NCBI GenBank assembly: GCA_041742355.1
Contig: JBGSIV010000245.1
Span: 1 to 10,496 of the forward strand
Reading direction: 5' to 3'
From: Candidatus Zixiibacteriota bacterium
Lineage (GTDB): Bacteria > Zixibacteria > MSB-5A5 > GN15 > FEB-12
Length of the DNA: 10,496 bases
The position numbers were made by a program, and so were the translations under genes. Below the pieces are notes generated by a model. It was given only the letters and a program-made list of their open reading frames with translations, did no database searches and was not told the origin of the DNA. Shown here in pieces: positions 2 through 10,496 of this stretch; the stretch's first letter is position 1, and every line of letters begins with the position of its first letter.

Positions 2-931
2 CTCAGCGGCGCCGGCTCGCTCGCCATCACCGCTTTCGCCGCCCGAGGCGACAGCCTGTACATAGGCACCTCCGGCGCCGGCGTCTGGGTCCTCTCACTT
101 GACGGCGGCACTACCTGGCAACCCTTCCGCACCGGCTTGCCGTGGAATCTGGCGTGGGATGTTTACACGCTGTACAACTTCGACGGTTTCCTCTTCGCCG
201 GCGCCGGCCAGAGCGCCTACATCTACCGCAACGCCTCCGGCACAAGCACTTGGGAAGCCATACTGATCACCGATATGTCCGGCGCCGGCACGGCGATGCT
301 CGACTTCGACCGCTCCGGAGCCACCCTCCTCGGCAGCGGCACCACCGGCCTGTTCACCAGCCCTGACACCGGCCTGACCTGGACCACCTTTCCGGGTCCC
401 TGGAACCCCGCCGGCGACGGCGCCCTGATCGTCACGCCCGAACACACCTTCGGCATGCTCGCGTACCTGACCCACGGAACCTACTTGTACGAATACGACG
501 GCCTCTCCTGGCAACTGCGCGACCACCTTGCCACCGTCGCCGCCTACGACATGATCGCGTTCGACAGTCGTCTCTACCTGGCCCACTTCACCGGGCTTCT
601 GTACGCCCCCCTCGACCCCACCGACATCACCGATCCCGAACCCCTCCTCCCGGCCACGCCGGCTCTCCTGCCGAACTACCCGAACCCCTTCAACCCGACC
701 ACGACCATCGCCTACGATGTCCCGTCAACCGGAGCGGTCACTCTGTCCGTAACAAATGCCGTCGGGCAGCACGTGTCTACCCTCGTGGATTCACGGCAGG
801 GGAGAGGCCGGCACAGCGTCGTGTGGGATGGCACCGACTCCTCCGGCCGCCGCGTCGCCTCGGGCATCTACTTCTACCGCCTCACCGTCGATGGTCAGAA
901 CGTAACGCGCAAGATGCTTCTTCTGAAGTAA
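2..931 (+). CDS. 5'-truncated secreted protein: BNR/Asp-box beta-propeller repeats plus C-terminal FlgD-Ig / T9SS type A-like sorting domain
   Basis: The frame is open from position 2 (LSGAGSLAITAFAARGDSLYIGTSGAGVWVLSLDGGTTWQPFRTGLPWN...), so the track start at 137 is internal. Asp-box motifs SLDGGTTW and SPDTGLTW are present, followed by a Pro/Asp/Thr linker and the C-terminal NYPNPFNPTTTIAYDVP...VWDGTDSSGRRVASGIYFYRL...TRKMLLLK. Stop TAA at 929-931. Confidence 0.9.
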   Translation, partial: LSGAGSLAITAFAARGDSLYIGTSGAGVWVLSLDGGTTWQPFRTGLPWNLAWDVYTLYNFDGFLFAGAGQSAYIYRNASGTSTWEAILITDMSGAGTAMLDFDRSGATLLGSGTTGLFTSPDTGLTWTTFPGPWNPAGDGALIVTPEHTFGMLAYLTHGTYLYEYDGLSWQLRDHLATVAAYDMIAFDSRLYLAHFTGLLYAPLDPTDITDPEPLLPATPALLPNYPNPFNPTTTIAYDVPSTGAVTLSVTNAVGQHVSTLVDSRQGRGRHSVVWDGTDSSGRRVASGIYFYRLTVDGQNVTRKMLLLK

Positions 932-984
932 CTCAGTCGGAAGATTGCTCAAGGCACGGTTCTCCTCCGACAGGGAGCGTTGGC

Positions 985-1018
985 TCCGGCTGATACCCAT
1001 GCCGGCCGGATCTTTTTC
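985..1018 (+). terminator. Possible intrinsic terminator after the secreted-protein gene
   Basis: TCCGGCTG (985-992) can pair with CGGCCGGA (1003-1010, one G-U pair) around a 10-nt loop and is followed by TCTTTTTC. Confidence 0.45.
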
Positions 1019-1035
1019 GGCGCCATCTTTAGTGC

Positions 1036-1064
1036 TTGCCAGCGCCGACCAGCCCCGCTACTTT
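1036..1064 (+). promoter_or_regulatory. Putative sigma70-type promoter for the lipoprotein gene
   Basis: TTGCCA (1036-1041), 17-nt spacer, TACTTT (1059-1064), about 30 nt upstream of ATG 1094. Confidence 0.55.
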
Positions 1065-1093
1065 GTCGCGATAACTTGAACCGAAAGGAATAC

Positions 1094-1678
1094 ATGAAAG
1101 CTACGCACTACGTTCTTATGGGCCTGCTCGTCGTCGGCCTGACCGTCAGCTGTTCCTCTCAGGACAACAAAGCGCCTGTCGACGTCGTCCGCGAGTGGAC
1201 TGACGCCCTCAAGGCGGGCGATTTTCAAAAGATGGCCTCTGTCATGCACCCCGAGGCCCTCACCGAATTCAAGGAAATCCTCCTGCCCGTCATGCAGGGC
1301 TTCCAGGAATCCATCGCGCAGGACACCACCGGCGTCGCCCAGGTTCCCGACAGCCTGAAACAGCAACTGGCCGGAATCGACCAGCTCGAACCGGCACAGT
1401 TCTACCCGCAGGCCATGAACGTGCTGACCTCCATCGTTCCCGACCTGCGCCAGAGCCTCAGCGGCATGACCTCGACCGTCATCGGCGGAGTGCCGGAAGG
1501 AGACACCCTCACCCACGTCGTCACCCGCACCCAGGCCGCCTACATGGGCCAGCCGATGATCAGCGACGTTGACGTTGTCTCGGTGAAGAAATCCGACGCC
1601 AACTGGCGGATCATGCTGACCGGCAACATCCGCGGGCTGGCCGAGGGCATCCGCAGCGCCTTCTTCGGGAGAGGTTGA
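1094..1678 (+). CDS. Putative lipoprotein (194 aa), possibly NTF2-like/DUF4878-like fold
   Basis: RBS GAAAGGA (1083-1089) precedes ATG 1094. The N-terminus MKATHYVLMGLLVVGLTVS-C is a signal peptide II with lipobox TVSC. PVDVVREWTDALKAGDFQKMASVMHP and the C-terminal VSVKKSDANWRI resemble NTF2-like lipoproteins. The track start at 980 (TTG) is probably too far upstream. Confidence 0.85.
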   Translation: MKATHYVLMGLLVVGLTVSCSSQDNKAPVDVVREWTDALKAGDFQKMASVMHPEALTEFKEILLPVMQGFQESIAQDTTGVAQVPDSLKQQLAGIDQLEPAQFYPQAMNVLTSIVPDLRQSLSGMTSTVIGGVPEGDTLTHVVTRTQAAYMGQPMISDVDVVSVKKSDANWRIMLTGNIRGLAEGIRSAFFGRG

Positions 1679-1727
1679 TCCCCCACTCGCCCGCTCGCTC
1701 CTCCCGAAACAGCGGACCACAAATGGT

Positions 1728-1754
1728 TAAGGCAGGACCGATGGTCCTGCCTTA
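1728..1754. terminator. Perfect 12-bp inverted repeat between convergent genes; likely bidirectional terminator
   Basis: TAAGGCAGGACC-GAT-GGTCCTGCCTTA lies between the + stop at 1678 and the - stop at 1801, with T-rich flanks on both strands (TTATTCGTT on +, TTAACCATTT on -). Confidence 0.7.
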
Positions 1755-1800
1755 TTCGTTCTATCGACACCGCGACACAGCCGCTGCTGTCCGCAGAAAA

Positions 1801-2925
1801 CTATCCTTCGATCATCTCGACATTGGCGCGCGGCACGACCGCCCGCTTCCCGTCGCCGAACTCCACCTCGAGCACGCGAGCCTTGGACTCGGACTCCAGG
1901 ACCGTCAGCGGCGACGGCAACCCGGTCACCGTGCCGATGTGGCCGAAGTACGGGTGCCGGATCACGCGCACCGGCGAACCGATCGCCAGCCCGCTGATCG
2001 TGGCGGCCGCCTGCTTCTCGACCTTGCCCTCCCTGGTCGCCGGAACAACCACCTCCGGCCGAATCACGCCGGCACGAATCTGGGTCGCCCCGTTGATACA
2101 GGCCAGCTCCCCTTCGTGGCGCTTCAGCAGATTCAACGTCGCCTCGGCCATCGCAATCGGCCCGAAACCCTCGGTTACCACCAGCGTGCAGCCAATCTCT
2201 TCCGAACCGGTGATCGCCACGCCGATATCGTAGCCGAGGAAATCGCGCAGGTCCTTGTCGTCGAACCCGCCCGTCACGATCCCCTTGACGCCGATCTTGA
2301 TCGCCTTCTTCAATGCATCGGCCGTCACGATCGACCCGCCGACCACCACCATACCCTTGAGGTCATCGGTGATCAGCCTCTCCTCGAGCGGCGTCTGGTT
2401 GTTCGGCACCACCACCTTGATTATCCCCTGCGTCTCGCCGCCGATGCCGAAAATCCCCTGCACGAACGAGGCGTACGTCGAAACGACACACCCTTCCCGC
2501 GGAACGACCTCGGTCACCTCGCCGCTGACATACGCGCGCACCTCGACCGGAATCGGCATGCCGCGCTGCAGCACCTGCCCGGTAATACTCGAAATCGATT
2601 CCAGCGTCCCGTCGATCGTGGCGCTCGCCGAACTGGATAACCACTTGATGAACGACTTTTTGACCGCAATCGGCTCGCCCGCCTTGATCGGGTCGCCTTC
2701 CTTCTTGACCATGACCAGTTCAAGGTCTTCCGGCGGCACACCGAGCTTGTTGGCGATATTGAGCGGCTCCACATTACCCGGCAACTCGGTCCGCGCCACC
2801 ACATCACTGGGCTTCACTTTGTCGCCCACCTTGACCAGCACCTCCCCCTTCAGGGGCAGAATGCGCCGCTTCTCGATGAGCATCCGTTCGGTGACCTTCA
2901 GTCCGGGCGTATAGGCATGAGCCAT
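1801..2925 (-). CDS. Conserved hypothetical cytoplasmic protein (374 aa): barrel-sandwich hybrid motifs, central alpha/beta domain, C-terminal KOW/SH3-like domain; co-transcribed with the GlmL-like ATPase
   Basis: ATG at 2925 (MAHAYTPGLKV) follows RBS AGGAAGGA (complement of 2931-2938). Hybrid half-motifs are GEVLVKVGDKVKPSDVVA, VKKEGDPIKAGEPIA, ATIDGTLESI and AYVSGEVTEV. GSPVRVIRHPYFGHIGTV is KOW-like. No signal peptide or TM segment. The track start at 3009 overlaps the upstream gene. Confidence 0.85.
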   Translation of the reverse strand: MAHAYTPGLKVTERMLIEKRRILPLKGEVLVKVGDKVKPSDVVARTELPGNVEPLNIANKLGVPPEDLELVMVKKEGDPIKAGEPIAVKKSFIKWLSSSASATIDGTLESISSITGQVLQRGMPIPVEVRAYVSGEVTEVVPREGCVVSTYASFVQGIFGIGGETQGIIKVVVPNNQTPLEERLITDDLKGMVVVGGSIVTADALKKAIKIGVKGIVTGGFDDKDLRDFLGYDIGVAITGSEEIGCTLVVTEGFGPIAMAEATLNLLKRHEGELACINGATQIRAGVIRPEVVVPATREGKVEKQAAATISGLAIGSPVRVIRHPYFGHIGTVTGLPSPLTVLESESKARVLEVEFGDGKRAVVPRANVEMIEG

Positions 2926-2956
2926 AAAATTCCTTCCTCTATAGCAAAAACAGGAC

Positions 2957-3709
2957 TTATCGGTTTTGTCTGCGCCGACGGCGAAGAACCATCGCGACGA
3001 TGAGCACAATGACCACCCCTCCGCCCCAGAACATGTACGGGCGGCGTTTGCCCGCCTCAGCTGGCGCTCCGGTCTCGATATCCGCCACTTTCAGCGTCTC
3101 TTTCGGGAGCATCTGCTCGGCGTCGCCGGCATGAAACGATGCGAGCACACCATTGAAGATCGGCAGTGCCTCCCCGAACGCCGCCACCGGCGCGTAGAAG
3201 TAGAACGTCGCCAACCCCTTGTCATGGAACCGCACCGCCAGCAGCAGCTTCTTGATGACTTCGCCGCGTTCGGTTATGTCGCTCACGACCGTGATCGTCT
3301 TCGTCTGCGCATCGTACGACGGCGAGTTGGACTTCATGTCCGCCAGCAGGTCGGCCACCGGGAAATACCGGATGTCCGTGCCGAACTTCTGACTCATGTC
3401 GCGCAGGGTCGAATCGATCTCCGCCTGCGTGAACGCTCCGCCGGTCGTATCCACCGTCATGATGAAGTACGCGCCGCTGAAAAACGGCACCGACGAAACG
3501 GGGGAGAAGGCCGCTTCATACTCGAGCGTCGACTTTCCCGCCTGGTTGGCCAGAAGGTGCGCATCAACCACCCGGTTGTCGACCTGCATCCACTCCGAAG
3601 GGTACTCGAAATAGAAATCTCCCGTGAGGCTGACATACGTCCCGGCCTGCCCCGTCAACGGCAGCGCCGCCACAGTCAGCAGCGCGATCAAAAAGATAGT
3701 GCTCTTCAT
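2957..3709 (-). CDS. Exported protein (250 aa) with Sec signal peptide, possible PsbP-like domain and C-terminal TM anchor with poly-Arg tail
   Basis: N-terminus MKSTIFLIALLTVAALPLTGQA is a signal peptide. GDFYFEYPSEWMQV resembles the F-x-x-P-x-x-W start of PsbP/Mog1-like domains. C-terminus is YMFWGGGVVIVLIVAMVLRRRRRQNR. The start codon overlaps the upstream stop (TAATG at 3711-3707). Confidence 0.85.
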   Translation of the reverse strand: MKSTIFLIALLTVAALPLTGQAGTYVSLTGDFYFEYPSEWMQVDNRVVDAHLLANQAGKSTLEYEAAFSPVSSVPFFSGAYFIMTVDTTGGAFTQAEIDSTLRDMSQKFGTDIRYFPVADLLADMKSNSPSYDAQTKTITVVSDITERGEVIKKLLLAVRFHDKGLATFYFYAPVAAFGEALPIFNGVLASFHAGDAEQMLPKETLKVADIETGAPAEAGKRRPYMFWGGGVVIVLIVAMVLRRRRRQNR

Positions 3710-5559
3710 TACATTTTCTCAGCCGGATAGATGTCCAGCTCGGTCATCCACCTCTTCAGGTTGTTCACCCGCTCATCCTCGGACAGCTCCGAGAGATCGA
3801 ACGGCCGGCCGCGCCCGTCGAGAATGATCCCGACCACGCCGCCCGTGATTTCGGTCTCCAGCTTGGCCCCCTTGCCGGCCCCGACATCGAAGCCACGCTC
3901 CGGCTCGAACACCGCCTTGACTTTCAGGGGCAAACCGTTCTCCGCCACACCGAGCGGGAATTTCTTCATCTCGAGGCTGCTCAGCGTGCCGGATACATCC
4001 CCCGTCGGCAGGCAAATGTGGTACTTCATCACCGGCCCGGGCTTCTTGAACGTGCCCTGCGGCGCGACACACGTGCCCAGGTGGATCAGGCAGTCCTTCT
4101 CGAACACCTCCGTCGCCGCCTTCGGCTGAACTTCCGTCAATACACCCAGCTGCGGCATCATGAAGATCGAGTCCACCGCCAGCCGCGTGACCCCCTCCGG
4201 CATAAAGGCGTCGATAAGCATAAGCGCCGACTGCTGCCGCCGCGGCGCATGCGACAGCACGCCCCCCGAACCGATCAGCATGTTCAGCGACATCATGTTC
4301 ACGATCGACTTGCCCGAGGCCGTCTGCTCGAACGCATCCGCGATCGTCCGCTGCTGCTGCACACCCTTGAGCACGGTGGCGAAATTCTTGTGCTGAATGA
4401 ACGCCAGTCGCAGCGCCTCCTTGGCGATCGCCTGTTCGAATATCAGCTCCTCCATCGACTGGGGAATCGTCGTCGGACGAATCATCTTGTTCTTCACCCG
4501 GTTGCGCAGGTCCCGCTCGTCCATTTTGAACGGCACCCACCGCATCACCATCGGCAGCGTCGCCTCGGCAAACACGTTCGAGATCGAGTACGACATGCCC
4601 AGGTTGGCCGACACTGTCCGGTTGAACACGCCGTCCGCGCCCCCCGGACGGAACACCGAGAAGACGTCCGTCGTCGCGCCGCCGATATCCACGCCGACCG
4701 CTTCGATATTATACTGGTCGGCAATCGTCTTTATAATGAGACCGACCGCCCCCGGCGTCGGCATGATCGGCGCATCCGTCCAGGACATCAGCTTCTTGTA
4801 ACCCGGCGCCTGCGCCATCACGTGTTCCATGAACAGCTCGTGAATTTCCTCGCGTGCTGGCAGGAGGTTCTCGCGCTCGAGCACCGGACGAAGATTGTCG
4901 ACCACCTTCAGGTCGACCTCATCCGCCAGCGTATCCTCGATCGCCTTGCGCGCTTCCTTGTTGCCCGCGTAAATCACCGGCAGCTTGTATGACGACCCCA
5001 GCCGCGGACGCGGATCGGCCGCCGAAATCAACTCGGCCAGTTCGACCACGTGCGTCGTCGTCCCGCCATCGATCCCCCCGGACAGGAGTATCATGTCCGG
5101 ACGAAGGTGGCGGATACGCTCGATCTGCTGGTGGGGGAGACGCCGGTCGTTCGACGCAATCACATCCATCACGATCGCTCCGGCGCCCAGCGCCGCCCGC
5201 TCGGCCGATTCGGCCGTCATCGAACGCACCACGCCGGCCACCATCATCTGGAGACCGCCGCCCGCCGACGACGTCGAAATGTACACATCCGTCCCGATAT
5301 TCCCCTTCGCCGGCGAAATGATCCGGCCCGCATCGTCAATCAGCTTCCGCCCCGACAATTCTTCCACTTCCGCCACCGCGTTCAGCACGCCCATCGTGAC
5401 ATCTTCAAACGGCGCTTCCACCGTCGTCGGCGCTTCGCCGCGAGTCGTCAGACGGTACTCCCCGTCCACGTACTCGATCAGAATCGCCTTGGTCGTGGTG
5501 GAACAGCAGTCGGTGGCGACGATAACCTTGATATCGTTGGGGTTGTCAAATTTTGCCAT
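3709..5559 (-). CDS. glmL: GlmL-family (glutamate mutase L-like; Clostridium 'MutL', not mismatch-repair MutL) ASKHA/actin-fold ATPase, long form (616 aa)
   Basis: ATG 5559 (MAKFDNPNDIK) follows RBS AGGAA. Motifs: phosphate-1 ATDCCSTTTK, APTTVE, TSSAGGGLQM, PDMILLSGGIDGG, PVIYAGN, NLRP, IMPTPGAV, phosphate-2 VDIGGATTDVFS, RTVSANLGMSYS and IGSGGVLSH. The track's TTG start at 5655 coincides with a -35 box. Confidence 0.9.
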   Translation of the reverse strand: MAKFDNPNDIKVIVATDCCSTTTKAILIEYVDGEYRLTTRGEAPTTVEAPFEDVTMGVLNAVAEVEELSGRKLIDDAGRIISPAKGNIGTDVYISTSSAGGGLQMMVAGVVRSMTAESAERAALGAGAIVMDVIASNDRRLPHQQIERIRHLRPDMILLSGGIDGGTTTHVVELAELISAADPRPRLGSSYKLPVIYAGNKEARKAIEDTLADEVDLKVVDNLRPVLERENLLPAREEIHELFMEHVMAQAPGYKKLMSWTDAPIMPTPGAVGLIIKTIADQYNIEAVGVDIGGATTDVFSVFRPGGADGVFNRTVSANLGMSYSISNVFAEATLPMVMRWVPFKMDERDLRNRVKNKMIRPTTIPQSMEELIFEQAIAKEALRLAFIQHKNFATVLKGVQQQRTIADAFEQTASGKSIVNMMSLNMLIGSGGVLSHAPRRQQSALMLIDAFMPEGVTRLAVDSIFMMPQLGVLTEVQPKAATEVFEKDCLIHLGTCVAPQGTFKKPGPVMKYHICLPTGDVSGTLSSLEMKKFPLGVAENGLPLKVKAVFEPERGFDVGAGKGAKLETEITGGVVGIILDGRGRPFDLSELSEDERVNNLKRWMTELDIYPAEKM

Positions 5560-5627
5560 CAATATTCCTACCGTTATGATTCTACTCTCATTACCAAATC
5601 CATGGCGCACCACTGCGCCTCCCGGCA

Positions 5628-5655
5628 AAGATAGACGATGCCGGGTACTTGTCAA
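5628..5655 (-). promoter_or_regulatory. Putative sigma70 promoter (proximal) for the glmL-like operon
   Basis: On the minus strand: TTGACA (5655-5650), 16-nt spacer, TATCTT (5633-5628). Confidence 0.6.
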
Positions 5656-5662
5656 GACGGTT

Positions 5663-5691
5663 AGTATAACCTGCCCGTTCAGCGATGTAAA
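5663..5691 (-). promoter_or_regulatory. Putative sigma70 promoter (distal) for the glmL-like operon
   Basis: On the minus strand: TTTACA (5691-5686), 17-nt spacer, TATACT (5668-5663). Confidence 0.55.
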
Positions 5692-5808
5692 CAGCGATTT
5701 TTCCCCGCCCCGCGCGACACAGCTTACGCCTTGCCGGGCCCGACCGCAATCTGCGGTATGTCCCCTTGTCGCAAGCAGCTGCGCTCCCTGGGCCCGGCCA
5801 CTTTTCGC

Positions 5809-5837
5809 TTGACTTGGAAGCTCACCGCAAATAGATT
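5809..5837 (+). promoter_or_regulatory. Putative sigma70 promoter for the membrane-protein operon
   Basis: TTGACT (5809-5814), 17-nt spacer, TAGATT (5832-5837), about 140 nt upstream of the first gene. Confidence 0.65.
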
Positions 5838-5972
5838 CTGCGAGTATCTCGCATGCCCTCGGTGAGAACCGGTACTCGTGACGGAAGTGGCTGGCGATTA
5901 AACAACTTGCCGGGGTCGTACGTCACTCCCTGGAAACGCCGATGGAACCCCGTATGATGCCATTGCAGAAGG

Positions 5973-7256
5973 GTGAACAGTTTGCTTAAATGCCTCGACC
6001 ACCTGGCCGAATCCTCCCGCTCGGCCTTCCTGTCCGCCGCCTTTCTGCTTGCCCTGGCTGTTTTTGCGCCCCTGACGTTCGCCCAGGACCAACCTGCCCC
6101 ACCTCTGACTGACTCCACCGGCGAAGCCACCGCCACCCCCCTTGCCCCGGTTCCCCCGACCGCTGTCACCGCCATCGACCGGCCCAACGACGCCGGCGGC
6201 GCAATTACTATATCATGGGAGCTGTCGACCGATGATGCCGCGGGGCGCGTGACCGAGTACAAGATCCTGCGCGCCGAGGGCGCCGCCGACGGCCCGGGCC
6301 CGTTTACCGAAATCGGCAACGCCACCGCCGGTCAGAACCGCTTCGAAGACGGCAACGTCGAGGACGACCGCGTCTACTTCTATAAAGTAGCAGCCCTCAA
6401 CACCCTGCGCGAGAACGGCATCACCCTCACCGAAACCACGGTCGAATCCGACGTCGTCGGACCGGTCGAATCGCACGCCCAGTGGTTCAACACCGGCCGC
6501 TCCCGCGTCCTCGTCGGCGTCCTCATCCTCTCCGGACTCATCATCTTCTACATCCAGCGCGCCCGCGCCGGCCGCGAGATCTTCATCCGCAAAATCGCCG
6601 GCCTCGAAGCCGTCGATGAAGCCGTCGGCCGCGCCACCGAAATGGGGAAGAAGATCTTTTACATCCCCGGCTCACAGGACATGGACAACGTCCAGACCCT
6701 CGCCGGCATCACTATCCTCGGCCGCGTCGCCGAACTCGCAGCCCAGTACGAAACCCACCTCGAGGTGCCCGTCTCTCGCTCCCTCGTAATGGTCACCTCC
6801 CGCGAGGTCGTCAAAGAAGCCTACATAAAAGCCGGCCGCACCGATTCCTACAACGATGACCAGGTGAAATACCTCACCGATGACCAGTTCGGCTATGCCG
6901 CCGCTATCGATGGCATGGTCGTGCGCGAACGCCCCGCCACCATCTTCCTCATGGGTTCGTTCTACGCCGAGGCGCTCGTCCTCGCGGAGACAGGCAACAG
7001 CGTCGGAGCCATCCAGATCGCCGGCACCGGGCAGCCCTCCCAGCTCCCCTTCTTCGTCGCCGCCTGCGACTACACGCTGATCGGCGAGGAACTCTTCGCC
7101 GCCTCCGCCTACCTGAGCAAGGAACCGCGCCAGCTCGGCTCGCTCAAGGGGCAGGATGTCGGCAAGGGCCTCATCCTCGTCGCCATCGCCATCGGCATCA
7201 TCCTGGAAACCCTGCACATCTGGGATGTGTCTAAACTCTTTACCGTGATCGATTGA
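5973..7256 (+). CDS. Membrane protein: signal peptide, fibronectin type III domain, TM helix, DUF6754-like domain, C-terminal TM (paralog 1)
   Basis: Signal peptide ...AFLLALAVFAPLTFA-Q. FN3 pattern PPTAVTA...ITISW...YKILR...FED...YFYKVAA. TM VLVGVLILSGLIIFYI. IRKIAGLEAVDEAVGRATEMG and AIQIAGT...QLPFF...DYTLIGEELFAASAYL are recognised as DUF6754-like. The start may be the in-frame TTG at 5982, which is better spaced from GAAGGG at 5968-5973. Confidence 0.85.
   Translation: MNSLLKCLDHLAESSRSAFLSAAFLLALAVFAPLTFAQDQPAPPLTDSTGEATATPLAPVPPTAVTAIDRPNDAGGAITISWELSTDDAAGRVTEYKILRAEGAADGPGPFTEIGNATAGQNRFEDGNVEDDRVYFYKVAALNTLRENGITLTETTVESDVVGPVESHAQWFNTGRSRVLVGVLILSGLIIFYIQRARAGREIFIRKIAGLEAVDEAVGRATEMGKKIFYIPGSQDMDNVQTLAGITILGRVAELAAQYETHLEVPVSRSLVMVTSREVVKEAYIKAGRTDSYNDDQVKYLTDDQFGYAAAIDGMVVRERPATIFLMGSFYAEALVLAETGNSVGAIQIAGTGQPSQLPFFVAACDYTLIGEELFAASAYLSKEPRQLGSLKGQDVGKGLILVAIAIGIILETLHIWDVSKLFTVID
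6594..6646 (+). repeat. Coding-sequence repeat shared by the two DUF6754-like paralogs (second copy at 10173-10225)
   Basis: 53 nt with 3 mismatches between the copies, encoding IAGLEAVDEA(V/I)GRATEMG. Confidence 0.8.
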
Positions 7257-7257
7257 T

Positions 7258-7905
7258 ATGCGGCGCGAAATACCCCTCCTGATCACTGGCATTGTCGGCA
7301 TCGTCTTCATCGTCCAGTACTTCATCCCACACTACCCGTTCGGACGCATGTCGGACTGGTTCTCCGACTGGTTCAGCATCGTTGCCTCCTGCGCCATCCT
7401 CCTCGGCGCCCTGAACCTCATGAAAATGTCCGTCCTCAAAGTGATCTCGCGCAAAGGCGACTGGATCTACGCGCTCATCACCATCGCCTGCTTCGCGCTC
7501 ATCACCGTCATCGGGCTCGCCGAAGGACGCGACTTCCGCGACACGGGCACCGGCTTCTCATGGCTGTATGACTACGTCTACTCGCCGCTGTCCTCCACCA
7601 TGTTCGCCATCCTCGCCTTCTTCGTCGCCTCGGCTTCCTACCGCGCCTTCCGCGCCCGGAACTTCGAAGCGACTCTCCTTCTGCTGGCGGCGTTCTTCGT
7701 CATGCTGGGACGCGTCCCGGTCGGCGATGTCCTCACCGGCTTCCTGCCGGAATCCATGCAGATGTCCCACCTGGCCACCTGGATCATGAACATCCCCAAC
7801 ACCGCCGGCCAGCGCGCCATCATGATCGGCATCGCCCTCGGCCTCGTCTCGACATCCGTGCGCATCATCCTCGGCATCGAACGCTCTTACCTGGGAGGGG
7901 AGTAG
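7258..7905 (+). CDS. Conserved hypothetical integral membrane protein (~6 TM, 215 aa)
   Basis: Starts 1 nt after the upstream TGA. About six hydrophobic segments, with PLSSTMFAILAFFVASASYRAFR and GQRAIMIGIALG...RIILGIER motifs. Codon usage is GC3-rich. Confidence 0.85.
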   Translation: MRREIPLLITGIVGIVFIVQYFIPHYPFGRMSDWFSDWFSIVASCAILLGALNLMKMSVLKVISRKGDWIYALITIACFALITVIGLAEGRDFRDTGTGFSWLYDYVYSPLSSTMFAILAFFVASASYRAFRARNFEATLLLLAAFFVMLGRVPVGDVLTGFLPESMQMSHLATWIMNIPNTAGQRAIMIGIALGLVSTSVRIILGIERSYLGGE

Positions 7906-7908
7906 GCC

Positions 7909-8928
7909 GTGAACGAACCCGCCACCAAACATCGCATCCCCGAATTCATCGTCGGTGCCGTCCTGCTGCTGCTGGCTATTGTCGCGTACATCGGACGGCG
8001 CGCCGACTGGTTCCCGCCGATCGTCCTCGGAACCGCAGCCTCCGTCGTCGTCATCATCCTGATCGCGGCCTCGCTCGCCTGGATCCTCATACGAACTATC
8101 CAGGGCCATCAGGCCGAACGGCGCATCGTCTACCTCTACATCGGTATCGCCGTGACCCTGCCCCTCTTCATGAGCCTCACCCAGAAAATCAGCATCTCCC
8201 CGGAAGTGCAGACACTCTACAACGGCTTGGCCGCACTGCCGCCCGGCTCCAAAGTCCTCGCCACTTTCGACTACGATCCCCCCTCGGCCCCGGAACTCCA
8301 GCCCATGGCCGAGACCTTCTTCCGCTACGCTTTCCACAACGACCTCAAAGTCATCGTCATCGGACTCTGGCCGCAGGGCCCCCAGCAGGCCAACCTCGCC
8401 CTCAACAAGATTCTCGCCGAAGACGAATTCAAACAGATGAACCTCCGCTACGGCGTCGACTACGTCAACCTCGGCTTCCAGTCCGGCAACGAATTCGTCA
8501 TCCAGCGCATGGGCTCGAGCATCCGTTCCATGTTCCCGGCCGACATCTACGGCACCCCGTACGACAGCCTCCCGCTGGTTCGCAATGTCCGCAACTTCAG
8601 CAACATCGATTACTCCTTCAACCTGTCCGCCGGATACCCCGGCACCAAGGAATGGGTGCTCGTCGCCGTCGATCGCTACGGCCTCAACCTCGGCGCGGGA
8701 AACACCGCCGTCCAGGTCACCGAAATGTACCCCTACGTCCGCTCCGGACAGATCATCGGTATCCTCGGCGGTATGAACGGCGCGGCCGAATTCGAAAAGA
8801 TCACCGACCAGATCGACAAGGGCACCCGCTTCATGCTCTCGCAGTCTTTCGCCCACATGGTCGTCATCGCCTTCATTTTCATCGGCAACGTGGCCTACTT
8901 CACCATCGAACGGAAAGGGAAGAGGTAG
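7909..8928 (+). CDS. Membrane protein with 3 N-terminal TMs, a ~220-aa soluble alpha/beta domain (probably extracytoplasmic) and a C-terminal TM (339 aa)
   Basis: GTG start follows GGAGGGGAG (7894-7902). Hydrophobic segments lie at about aa 11-28, 36-60, 72-88 and 315-331. Soluble motifs are FDYDPPSAPELQP, YGVDYVNLGF, SAGYPG and GILGGMNGAAEFE. Basic tail ERKGKR. Confidence 0.85.
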   Translation: MNEPATKHRIPEFIVGAVLLLLAIVAYIGRRADWFPPIVLGTAASVVVIILIAASLAWILIRTIQGHQAERRIVYLYIGIAVTLPLFMSLTQKISISPEVQTLYNGLAALPPGSKVLATFDYDPPSAPELQPMAETFFRYAFHNDLKVIVIGLWPQGPQQANLALNKILAEDEFKQMNLRYGVDYVNLGFQSGNEFVIQRMGSSIRSMFPADIYGTPYDSLPLVRNVRNFSNIDYSFNLSAGYPGTKEWVLVAVDRYGLNLGAGNTAVQVTEMYPYVRSGQIIGILGGMNGAAEFEKITDQIDKGTRFMLSQSFAHMVVIAFIFIGNVAYFTIERKGKR

Positions 8929-8934
8929 CCGGCC

Positions 8935-9600
8935 ATGGAAGGCGGATTCATGAACCACTTCGCGCTCTGGGTCGCGGCCCTGCTCACCCTTGGCATAGTC
9001 TCGTTCCTCTACCGCGATAACCCCTGGTACAAAGTGTGCGAGGCAATCTTCGTCGGCATCTCCGCCGGCTACTGGTTCGTCACCTACGTGTGGGACAACC
9101 TCGTCGGCAAATTCTGGGAAGGCATTTTTCCCCCCGCCGGCGCCGAACGCTCGCCCGACTGGTTCATGCTCCTCTTCGGCGGCTTCCTCGGCCTGCTCAT
9201 GCTCATGCGCCTGTTCCCCAAAATCGGCTGGGTGTCGCGCTGGCCGCTGGCCTTCATCGTCGGCGCCACCGCCGGCCTCTACCTGGTCACCTACTTCGCC
9301 TCCAACGTCATGGTCCAGATCGAGGACACCCTCCGCCCGCTGCTCGGCGAAAACTACGACGCCTCCTTCGCCGACGTCGTCGGCAACACGGTCGTCTTCA
9401 TCGGCACCTTCTCCGGCCTCGTGTACTTCTTCTTCAGCAAAGAACACACCGGCGCCTTCGGCAAAACGGCCCGGGTCGGCATCTTCTTCTTGATGGTCAC
9501 CTTCGGAGCCTCTTTCGGATACACCGTCATGAGCCGTATGTCGCTCCTGATTGGACGCCTCGATTTCCTCTTCAGCGACTGGCTGGGGTTGATACAATGA
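8935..9600 (+). CDS. Conserved hypothetical integral membrane protein (~6 TM, 221 aa)
   Basis: ATG 8935 follows GGAAGAGG. About six hydrophobic segments, with SFLYRDNPWYK, VGISAGY, VGATAGL and FGASFGY motifs. Stop TGA at 9598-9600. Confidence 0.85.
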   Translation: MEGGFMNHFALWVAALLTLGIVSFLYRDNPWYKVCEAIFVGISAGYWFVTYVWDNLVGKFWEGIFPPAGAERSPDWFMLLFGGFLGLLMLMRLFPKIGWVSRWPLAFIVGATAGLYLVTYFASNVMVQIEDTLRPLLGENYDASFADVVGNTVVFIGTFSGLVYFFFSKEHTGAFGKTARVGIFFLMVTFGASFGYTVMSRMSLLIGRLDFLFSDWLGLIQ

Positions 9601-10496
9601 AGACGCACGGTCCGACAATATCGCCTCTCGGCCGGTCCTTCCGGCTCCTCCTGCTTGCCGCCCTGCTCCTCGGCGCAAACCTCACTTCCGCGCAGGAACT
9701 TCCCGACTCCGCCTCCCTCGACACTACCCTCGCCGCAGCCGACACCACCCCGATCATCGTCGCCCCGCCCACCTCCGTCATCGCCGAGGACCACGACTAC
9801 GATGACGGCGAGCGGCTCGACCTGCAGTGGATCCCCTCGATCGATGACCAGCCGGTCGACGGCACGGTGCTCGGCTACACCATATACCGCAGCGCGAACG
9901 GCGGCCCATTCGATTCCATCGGCGCCGTCGTGGCGCAGACCGCCGCTTACATCGACGACCAGTTGGAGCGGGACTCCACCTACCAGTACTATGTCGCCGC
10001 CGTCTCCGTCAATTCCTCCGCCGCGTCCCCCCGGACCCAGCCCATTTCCCCCGAGCGGGAGTGGATCAACTTCGGCCGCAAATGGCTCTTTGTCCTCGCG
10101 CTGGTCATCGGCGGCGCCGTGATCTACTTCATCCAGGCCGCCAAGTCCGGCCGGAACCTGTTTGTCCGACGCATCGCCGGCCTCGAGGCCGTCGACGAAG
10201 CCATCGGCCGCGCCACCGAAATGGGCCGCCCCATCCTCTACATACCCGGCATCCAGGACATGGACGACGTTCAGACCCTGGCTTCGATCACTATCCTCGG
10301 CCGCGTTGCCCAGCAGATCGCTACCTACGACACGAAGATTCGCATGCCCGTGTCCCGGTCACTCGTTATGACCGCCGGCCGCGAGACCATCAAAGCGGCC
10401 TATGCCGCCGCCGGCCGCCCCGACGCCTACACCGACGACATGGTGCAGTACGTGACCGACGAGCAGTTCGGCTATGTCGCCGCCGTCGACGGCATC
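9597..10496 (+). CDS. 3'-truncated FN3 + DUF6754-like membrane protein (paralog 2); absent from the supplied ORF track
   Basis: ATGA overlap with the upstream stop, then 300 open codons to the window end: MKTHGPTISPLGRSFRLLLLAALLLGANLTSA-QELPDSASLDTTL...PPTSVIAEDHDYDDGERLDLQW...YTIYRS...YQYYVAA...WLFVLALVIGGAVIYFI...FVRRIAGLEAVDEAIGRATEMG...TDEQFGYVAAVDGI. Confidence 0.9.
   Translation, partial: MKTHGPTISPLGRSFRLLLLAALLLGANLTSAQELPDSASLDTTLAAADTTPIIVAPPTSVIAEDHDYDDGERLDLQWIPSIDDQPVDGTVLGYTIYRSANGGPFDSIGAVVAQTAAYIDDQLERDSTYQYYVAAVSVNSSAASPRTQPISPEREWINFGRKWLFVLALVIGGAVIYFIQAAKSGRNLFVRRIAGLEAVDEAIGRATEMGRPILYIPGIQDMDDVQTLASITILGRVAQQIATYDTKIRMPVSRSLVMTAGRETIKAAYAAAGRPDAYTDDMVQYVTDEQFGYVAAVDGI

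Follow-up and report, generated by a model that had tools for sequence, protein, structure and literature searches.

Introduction

In the Hsp70 import motors (mtHsp70-Tim44, BiP-Sec63), the ATP/ADP cycle of an ASKHA protein is tethered at a membrane channel, and in the diol-dehydratase reactivase DdrAB an ASKHA cycle does mechanical work on a partner. ATPases may also be shared among transporters, as those of the MsiK type of ABC ATPases are, and, to our knowledge, the known prokaryotic ATP-driven solute pumps are energised by P-loop (ABC, F/V, ArsA) or P-type ATPases. Passages of two papers describe the ECF module of ECF transporters as shared (PMC7755397, PMC10368641), and classical MutL is called, in the passage concerned, a reactivation chaperone by analogy, with citation of a diol-dehydratase paper (PMC4682846). 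The present analysis concerns a long-form relative of GlmL/MutL encoded back to back with membrane-protein genes of the DUF6754 type in a window of 10,496 nucleotides, which is the complete contig JBGSIV010000245.1 (C245 in our numbering) of the Candidatus Zixiibacteriota assembly GCA_041742355.1, a genome estimated to be 93.8% complete. The system is real, is conserved across phyla and is unlike any characterised system known to us, and its parts very probably work together as some kind of ATP-linked membrane machine. Neither a description of the system nor a paper on DUF6754 was found in the literature, with subscription papers and supplements lying outside the search.

Layout of the locus

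The eight proteins of the system are called A, B and GlmL on the minus strand and D, E, F, G and second D on the plus strand. Their positions in the window and the main basis of each assignment are as follows:

1801-2925, minus strand: A, soluble partner, 374 residues (open reading frame, ORF)
2957-3709, minus strand: B, exported and anchored protein, 250 residues (hydropathy; present in 19 of the 80 loci described below)
3709-5559, minus strand: GlmL, long-form GlmL-like ASKHA protein, 616 residues (PF13941, E = 1e-126)
5973-7256, plus strand: D (DUF6754), 427 residues, start codon uncertain (PF20539, E = 6e-122)
6627-6647, plus strand: predicted GRATEMG docking motif of D, residues 219-225 (invariant columns, model contacts)
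7258-7905, plus strand: E, 215 residues, six predicted transmembrane (TM) segments (topology prediction)
7909-8928, plus strand: F, 339 residues, predicted TM segment, extracytoplasmic Rossmann-like domain and TM segment (model, topology prediction)
8935-9600, plus strand: G, 221 residues, five to six predicted TM segments (hydropathy, topology prediction)
9597-10496, plus strand: second D, opening gene of another tandem cassette and truncated at the contig end (fn3-like region and DUF6754; GRATEMG at 10206-10226)

The ORF calls agree with the two back-to-back operons proposed in an earlier note made from the letters of this window, and the gaps of 1, 3 and 6 nucleotides and the ATGA overlap (9597-9600) given there are correct. 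The "five-gene membrane-protein operon" of that note has to be divided differently, since the real unit is the four-gene cassette D-E-F-G and the fifth gene is the D of a second copy. The two "FN3+DUF6754" proteins do both carry DUF6754, whereas the fn3 match is confined to second D and stays below the cutoff (20.6 vs 25 bits); the alignment of both D proteins extends over 284 residues (47%), the fn3-like region of second D included. Only GlmL (PF13941) and both D proteins (DUF6754) passed Pfam cutoffs among the eight. None of the eight contains a Walker A, DxHxxG, CxxCH or CxxC motif, as had been claimed for the first three. The close homologues of the window proteins are mostly from Zixibacteria by name.

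Linkage, copy number and distribution

The neighbourhood set comprised 80 GTDB loci centred on GlmL (1.25 Mb), many of which end at contig edges, so that the counts are lower bounds. The genome samples comprised 121 genomes of the same phylum and 201 genomes of the phylum of G126, a Planctomycetaceae record (the second phylum below). Related genomes are not independent, and counts are given with no p-value.

Among the 80 loci, A was present in 54, D in 29, E in 29, F in 25, G in 25 and B in 19, and the cassette genes followed the order D-E-F-G, often in tandem. D was located within 10 kb of GlmL in 29 loci, being co-directional in 19 and divergent, as in the window, in 10. The same-strand loci, typically arranged as Y-X-GlmL-A-D-E-F-G (X and Y are small genes described below), came from records titled Planctomycetota, Eisenbacteria, Fidelibacterota, Lentisphaeria, Desulfuromonadaceae and others.

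In the phylum of the source genome, PF13941 was matched in 120 of 121 genomes (by a single match in 110) and DUF6754 in 121 of 121, with two to six matches each and most often five, these matches not being strict copy numbers. The lone genome lacking GlmL (G085) has a gap of N letters spanning the gene, i.e., an assembly gap, and was rejected as an example of cassettes without GlmL. In the second phylum, DUF6754 was found in 56, PF13941 above cutoff in 57 and A in 55 of the 201 genomes; GlmL, A and D occurred all three together in 53 of the 60 genomes with any of them, and 141 genomes had none. Even where the GlmL locus has neither A nor the cassette, as in Poribacteria, one A and one D are kept elsewhere (5 of 5 tested genomes). 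In this group, GlmL, A and D-E-F are scattered over the chromosome, yet all are retained. The two arms are thus linked and co-distributed, as the earlier note had supposed.

The source genome carries one GlmL and one A, together with five DUF6754 matches and five E-F-G sets, the latter on contigs C245, C169, C138, C295 and C184; the second D of the window probably belongs with the E-F-G set on C184 to a single cassette that the assembly has divided. The five cassettes are 42-58% identical. Because tandem D copies fall in separate branches across genomes, the D paralogues are old.

These data bear on the possibility of a housekeeping envelope machine, in which the complex would export or insert a protein, lipid or wall component and GlmL would act as a ratchet in the manner of Hsp70 or as a scaffold like MreB/FtsA. 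Such a role would suit a highly conserved system that is core in the phylum, the maintenance of ancient D paralogues as separate clades, the large variable outer domains, and the tolQ-type gene in 15 of the 80 loci, mainly those of close relatives. The tolQ link can, however, be explained by descent, no substrate or envelope gene is consistently linked, and the system has a scattered occurrence in the second phylum (56 of 201) and is absent from 14 control genomes. We consider this role unlikely.

The GlmL-like protein and its independence from glutamate mutase

GlmL scored 423.5 bits against PF13941 (Pfam cutoff 27) and fell below the cutoffs of NF040745 (234 vs 475 bits), TIGR01319 (171.5 vs 204 bits) and NF040744, the Or-4 family (217 vs 600 bits); judged by these profiles, it belongs to the broad PF13941 family and to neither of the curated families (GlmL, Or-4). 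Its ASKHA motifs are phosphate-1 (D17..K24), phosphate-2 (DIGGATTD, 291-298) and adenosine (GSGG). D17, T296, D298 and G432 are invariant in 41 alignment rows, DIGGATTD is present in 120 of 120 close homologues, and these nucleotide-binding motifs point to a putative ATPase. Identity among the 120 best hits is 85-92%. A PDB sequence search with GlmL returned nothing meaningful. Codon 19 (5503-5505) encodes Cys in the window and Gly in 119 of the 120 close homologues; the Gly codon is present in contigs of three other runs, of which one agrees with the window at every other position over 467 bases. In the best-matching run, a contig breaks off at this codon. Cys19 is probably an error or a private variant.

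The domain context of distant relatives is informative as well. Of the best 150 distant representatives, 44 have GlmL fused to A and one (P0266) has it fused to X, and in two others it stands behind an exported domain and a TM segment (an M1-peptidase-like domain in P0249, another domain in P0243).

The most conservative interpretation of such a protein would be an ordinary reactivase of an unlinked B12 enzyme, with the membrane genes being separate. It draws on the PF13941 membership and the shared motifs, including the GGxDGG loop, and on a B12-binding mutase-type subunit encoded on another contig of the source genome; moreover, the aminomutase profile PF09043, unmatched in 1 + 5 genomes, matched no positive control either. 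Against it, GlmL lies below the three curated cutoffs, and the long forms branch apart from five mutase-type proteins (FastTree support 91). Glutamate mutase E was above cutoff in only 7 of the 121 own-phylum genomes and in 2 of the 201 second-phylum genomes, both without long GlmL and without DUF6754. No mutase subunit was detected in the 1.25 Mb of the 80 loci, and glmS and glmE were found neither in the source genome nor in these loci, the positive controls showing the classical arrangement. The predicted docking of GlmL on D, described below, is also at odds with a reactivase role. This interpretation is largely refuted and can be regarded as highly improbable, and long-form GlmL appears independent of glmS/glmE, as had been proposed for this locus.

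A separate observation was made in some genomes of the phylum, where a single frame of 651 residues combines a B12-binding part (DIHSVG) with a glutamate mutase E match (L010, 853-2805). This frame adjoins a racemase-like gene (labelled by eye), and its host genomes mostly show only long GlmL.

Predicted docking of GlmL on D

An interface between the two arms had also been proposed, and a three-chain model was built from GlmL (10-500), A (1-298) and the cytoplasmic domain of D. The model reached a score of 0.61, compared with 0.00 for the best of three controls, and the score dropped to 0.00 when GlmL was replaced; A contributed only two contact residues. The docking runs share at least 94% of their contacts, with partner pLDDT (predicted local distance difference test) of at least 77. 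The three-chain model thus passed and supports GlmL-D binding, with GlmL predicted to dock on the GRATEMG helix of D. Since no similar complex was detected in the PDB by sequence, a pass that only reproduces a memorised structure is unlikely.

Conservation on both sides of the modelled contact can be described in detail. The G, R, T, E, M and G of GRATEMG are invariant in 47 of 47 D rows. Glu223 of D is central in the modelled interface, where it contacts R224 and the glycine-rich 161-167 loop of GlmL; R224 occurs in 38 of 41 long GlmL forms and in 0 of 5 mutase-type proteins, and the glycine loop is common to the long forms and four of the five mutase-type proteins. The predicted docking site coincides with a conserved GlmL patch (110-115, 136-139, 161-170, 224, 227, 398-402). 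In the source genome, GRATEM[G/A] is kept in all four D copies with an assembled N-terminal part, one of them having GRATEMA. The latter is the most divergent D paralogue (C138, 5136-6023), which also has a long branch and may bind the motor, i.e., the GlmL-A unit, differently.

The soluble partner A and the accessory genes

The association of A with GlmL is suggested by the fusions mentioned above. A begins with barrel-sandwich hybrid repeats, which have a hydrophobic tip where a lipoyl-lysine motif would sit. This hairpin tip (residues 90-97, window 2635-2658) has the consensus KxFFGLFK and is a candidate membrane-contact loop. A role of A as a lipoyl or biotin carrier was considered and rejected, as there is no invariant carrier-lysine motif. 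The motif TQIRAGVxRP (281-290) retains invariant T, R, G, R and P in free and fused forms, and the C-terminal part of A is missing from most GlmL-A fusions. Pfam gave a sub-cutoff hit to RnfC/NqrA N-terminal or biotin/lipoyl-type domains, with minority Atlas labels of the same kind, and a PDB sequence search returned nothing meaningful. The KOW label applied to A in the earlier note derives from an Atlas cluster name and "NusG" names of the Joint Genome Institute, with no Pfam support.

The conserved residues of A and D could be read in terms of kinase-coupled uptake, in which the cassette would be a facilitator and GlmL would phosphorylate or ATP-activate the entering substrate, as sugar kinases or the hydantoinase/oxoprolinase A subunits do. 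GlmL relatives give weak Hydantoinase_A matches (E about 1e-5), A has invariant arginines in its alignments, and C200 and D201 (A2 numbering) are near-invariant in D, with D201 in the predicted GlmL interface. However, the A alignments contain no invariant His or Cys, a single enzyme would have to serve five cassettes of the divergence given above, and the closest characterised relatives are thought, in the passage cited above, to be chaperones and not kinases (PMC4682846). Substrate activation by GlmL is, in our estimate, quite improbable.

B has a signal peptide and a C-terminal membrane anchor according to hydropathy, and no Pfam match. Its inclusion in the machine is not sustained by its presence in only 19 of the 80 related loci; B is a lineage-restricted accessory. 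The small genes X (about 130 residues) and Y (about 160 residues) recur in 38 and 20 of the 80 loci, respectively, and those of the source genome are located away from GlmL on contig C305 (1992-2977). There they stand near a periplasmic-binding-like ORF and a gyrase-B-like ORF, both labelled by eye.

The D-E-F-G membrane cassette

D is predicted to consist of a signal peptide, a variable exported N-terminal domain, a TM segment, a cytoplasmic Rossmann-like domain and a further TM segment. The models of D (pLDDT 89.7) and F (pLDDT 92.3) share the same order of elements, namely a TM helix, six helix-strand units, a helix and a TM helix. According to the positive-inside rule, the D domain is cytoplasmic and the F domain outside, E is N-in and the core of G is N-out. 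The F of the window copy has two extra N-terminal TM segments, and the F alignment contains an invariant His. The outer loop that follows TM3 in E can accommodate insertions as long as about 400 residues, TPR repeats among them; fusions of E to D, F or G were sought and rejected, as the 120 listed of 282 longer proteins all proved to be loop insertions. E homologues are also present in named, cultured planctomycetes (Caulifigura, Planctomicrobium, Thalassoroseus).

In these models, the D and F domains are generic Rossmann-like folds. The best fold matches had Z 10.6, root-mean-square deviation (rmsd) 3.2 and 146 aligned residues for D, and Z 9.9, rmsd 3.5 and 140 aligned residues for F, and ten entries are common to the two top-50 lists. 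Transhydrogenase dIII, sirtuins, RCK/TrkA-N and MT0777 are tied among the matches (Z 9.2-10.4 for D, 7.5-9.9 for F); both lists are flat, at 4-15% identity with no stand-out match, and speak for the fold only, with no function implied. Foldseek gave no match for D at E<=0.001 and two weak matches of low template-modelling score for F, whose outer domain also resembled, weakly, the lobes of sugar-binding proteins (Z 7.4-8.4). Neither F nor A had a structure in the Atlas. Inverted repeats are common among transporters, and the position of the D and F domains on opposite membrane faces suggests such a repeat here.

The presence of RCK/TrkA-N among the tied matches of D (Z 9.1-9.7, rmsd 3.0-4.9, 115-139 aligned) raises the possibility of signal or energy-state coupling, with the cassette as a receptor or gated channel and GlmL-A as a nucleotide-sensing switch, like the RCK rings on Trk/Ktr. 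The variable outer domains and one GlmL relative with a GntR domain in front (P0299) are in keeping with such a switch. On the other hand, the D list is flat and generic even at its best Z, GxGxxG is absent from the D consensus, and the operons show no recurrent kinase, cyclase or regulator. A signalling role therefore seems distinctly unlikely.

Proposed mechanism and the weight of evidence

The reading of the locus as an ATP-driven membrane machine, put forward in the earlier note, is supported by linkage, co-distribution and the predicted interface, the function itself being inferred. The parts list has changed in part: the ATPase, its partner and the membrane subunits stand, and the membrane side is now a four-gene, multi-copy cassette, X and Y lie elsewhere and the 250-residue B is not core.

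As to what the machine does, a primary active transporter, namely an importer with an ASKHA motor shared by several cassettes, is the favoured though tentative candidate. The energy for import would then come from an ATPase of the ASKHA fold and not of the ABC type. The four cassette proteins would assemble as a single membrane complex, with the predicted Rossmann-like domain of D inside and that of F outside, and with E and G as subunits of about six TM segments in opposite orientation. The cytoplasmic GlmL-A unit, probably together with X, would dock on the GRATEMG helix of D, and its ATP/ADP conformational cycle would, in the chaperone-like manner of ASKHA proteins, flip the cassette between outward-facing and inward-facing states. 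A single motor may serve several paralogous cassettes with different outer domains, as the copy numbers suggest. We hold it possible, again tentatively, that this arrangement is a new transporter class, a pseudo-symmetric four-subunit unit (D/E in, F/G out) with a detachable, shared motor of the actin/Hsp70 fold.

Peptides or amino-acid-derived solutes are weakly favoured as the cargo. About 18 of 96 scanned flanking ORFs (141 called) relate to amino-acid or peptide metabolism, a count with no base-rate control; these 18 include an oligopeptide permease and exported metalloproteases as well as five genes of glycine cleavage.

Several results weigh against the importer. Neither a binding protein nor any one pathway turns up consistently beside these genes, and the near-universal retention of the system and the 85-92% identity of GlmL fit housekeeping at least as well as nutrient uptake. 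PDB sequence searches with D, E, F and G revealed no solved relative or transporter fold. Profile comparison, with and without secondary structure, gave a probability of homology of 2-8% for D and F and of under 1% for E and G; with homology within these pairs undetected, the idea of an inverted repeat rests on a very common fold. Of 157 solved complexes 116, and of 215 mismatched pairs 2, attain the score mark passed by the docking model, a calibration that holds only roughly for a three-chain job with alignments made here. Seven of the 60 positive genomes of the second phylum lack one or more parts: G169 has a short classical GlmL beside glmE and glmS, two are fragments at contig ends, and the remaining four are unexplained, including D without GlmL (G180 and G183, where the D loci sit on short contigs) and GlmL-A without D (G299). 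Additionally, six of the 121 own-phylum genomes contain a second, divergent PF13941 gene in a frame of 930-980 residues, and in the three inspected (G107, G017, G104) this gene is a fusion of GlmL with A, the sequence around it showing no cassette.

If the transporter reading is true, the class would form part of the Zixibacteria core and extend to many little-studied phyla, and an ASKHA motor docked on a dedicated membrane cassette would add a further way in which ATP can drive work at membranes. Nearly all genomes of one uncultured phylum have the system, and several other phyla also contain it. Thousands of these ATPases bear the annotation "glutamate mutase L" or "methylaspartate mutase", and metabolic reconstructions can be misled by it.

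Other features of the window

Outside the coding regions of the system, the following features were noted:

5560-5972, no strand: region between the divergent operons, with sigma-70-like sites in either direction (consensus matches only)
5655-5628, minus strand: sigma-70-like site TTGACA-16-TATCTT (consensus match)
5809-5837, plus strand: sigma-70-like site TTGACT-17-TAGATT (consensus match)
1728-1754, no strand: hairpin of 12 bp where two genes converge, probably terminating the minus-strand operon

Five sigma-70-like sites were counted in 900-6100, compared with 1.3 +/- 1.2 in shuffled sequence. The hairpin was also considered as a repeated element, which was rejected because it is single-copy in the genome, and no Rfam match was found in the window. 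Two further genes are located on the plus strand near the start of the window. The first (2-931) is the end of a BNR-like repeat protein with a C-terminal sorting domain of the FlgD-Ig/type IX secretion system (T9SS) type, unrelated to the system, and the second (1094-1678) encodes a probable lipoprotein of 194 residues with weak SnoaL/DUF4440-like hits, in single copy.

Comparison with known systems

The closest relatives of long GlmL by sequence are classical GlmL/MutL (PF13941, NF040745) and Or-4 (NF040744), which have a homologous ASKHA core (25-31% identity over about 450 residues); the classical proteins also have the same phosphate motifs and the GGxDGG loop. Long GlmL differs from them in its length (616 vs 416-467 residues), its own branch, its occurrence without glmS/glmE, its fixed partner A and its linkage to a membrane cassette, and R224 and the 137-139 loop are specific to the long forms.

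The likeness to other membrane systems is more limited. With Trk/Ktr, the resemblance is one of fold only, and the GxGxxG motif is absent from the consensus of D. Compared with the phosphotransferase system (PTS), no PTS family hits were obtained and A has no invariant His or Cys, but D has a near-invariant Cys and F an invariant His. Unlike RnfC/NqrA and the biotin/lipoyl hybrids, A has no Fe-S or flavin motifs, and its KxFFGLF tip replaces the carrier-lysine motif; compared with the Rnf/Nqr pumps, the system shows no CxxC or CxxCH motif and no family hit above cutoff. In contrast to the Hsp70 motors, the system has no detected peptide-binding domain and no detected J-protein or Sec/Tim homologue, and the partner is a prokaryotic cassette. 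No sequence similarity to ECF transporters or to Hsp70 translocation motors was detected. The system differs from ECF and ABC transporters in having no Walker A motif and no ABC family hit, and D, E, F and G show no sequence relation to solved proteins. In its proposed organisation, it would resemble the Hsp70 translocation motors as well as the ECF and MsiK-type systems; in the latter two, one energising module serves several substrate-side membrane units, as GlmL-A is proposed to do here.

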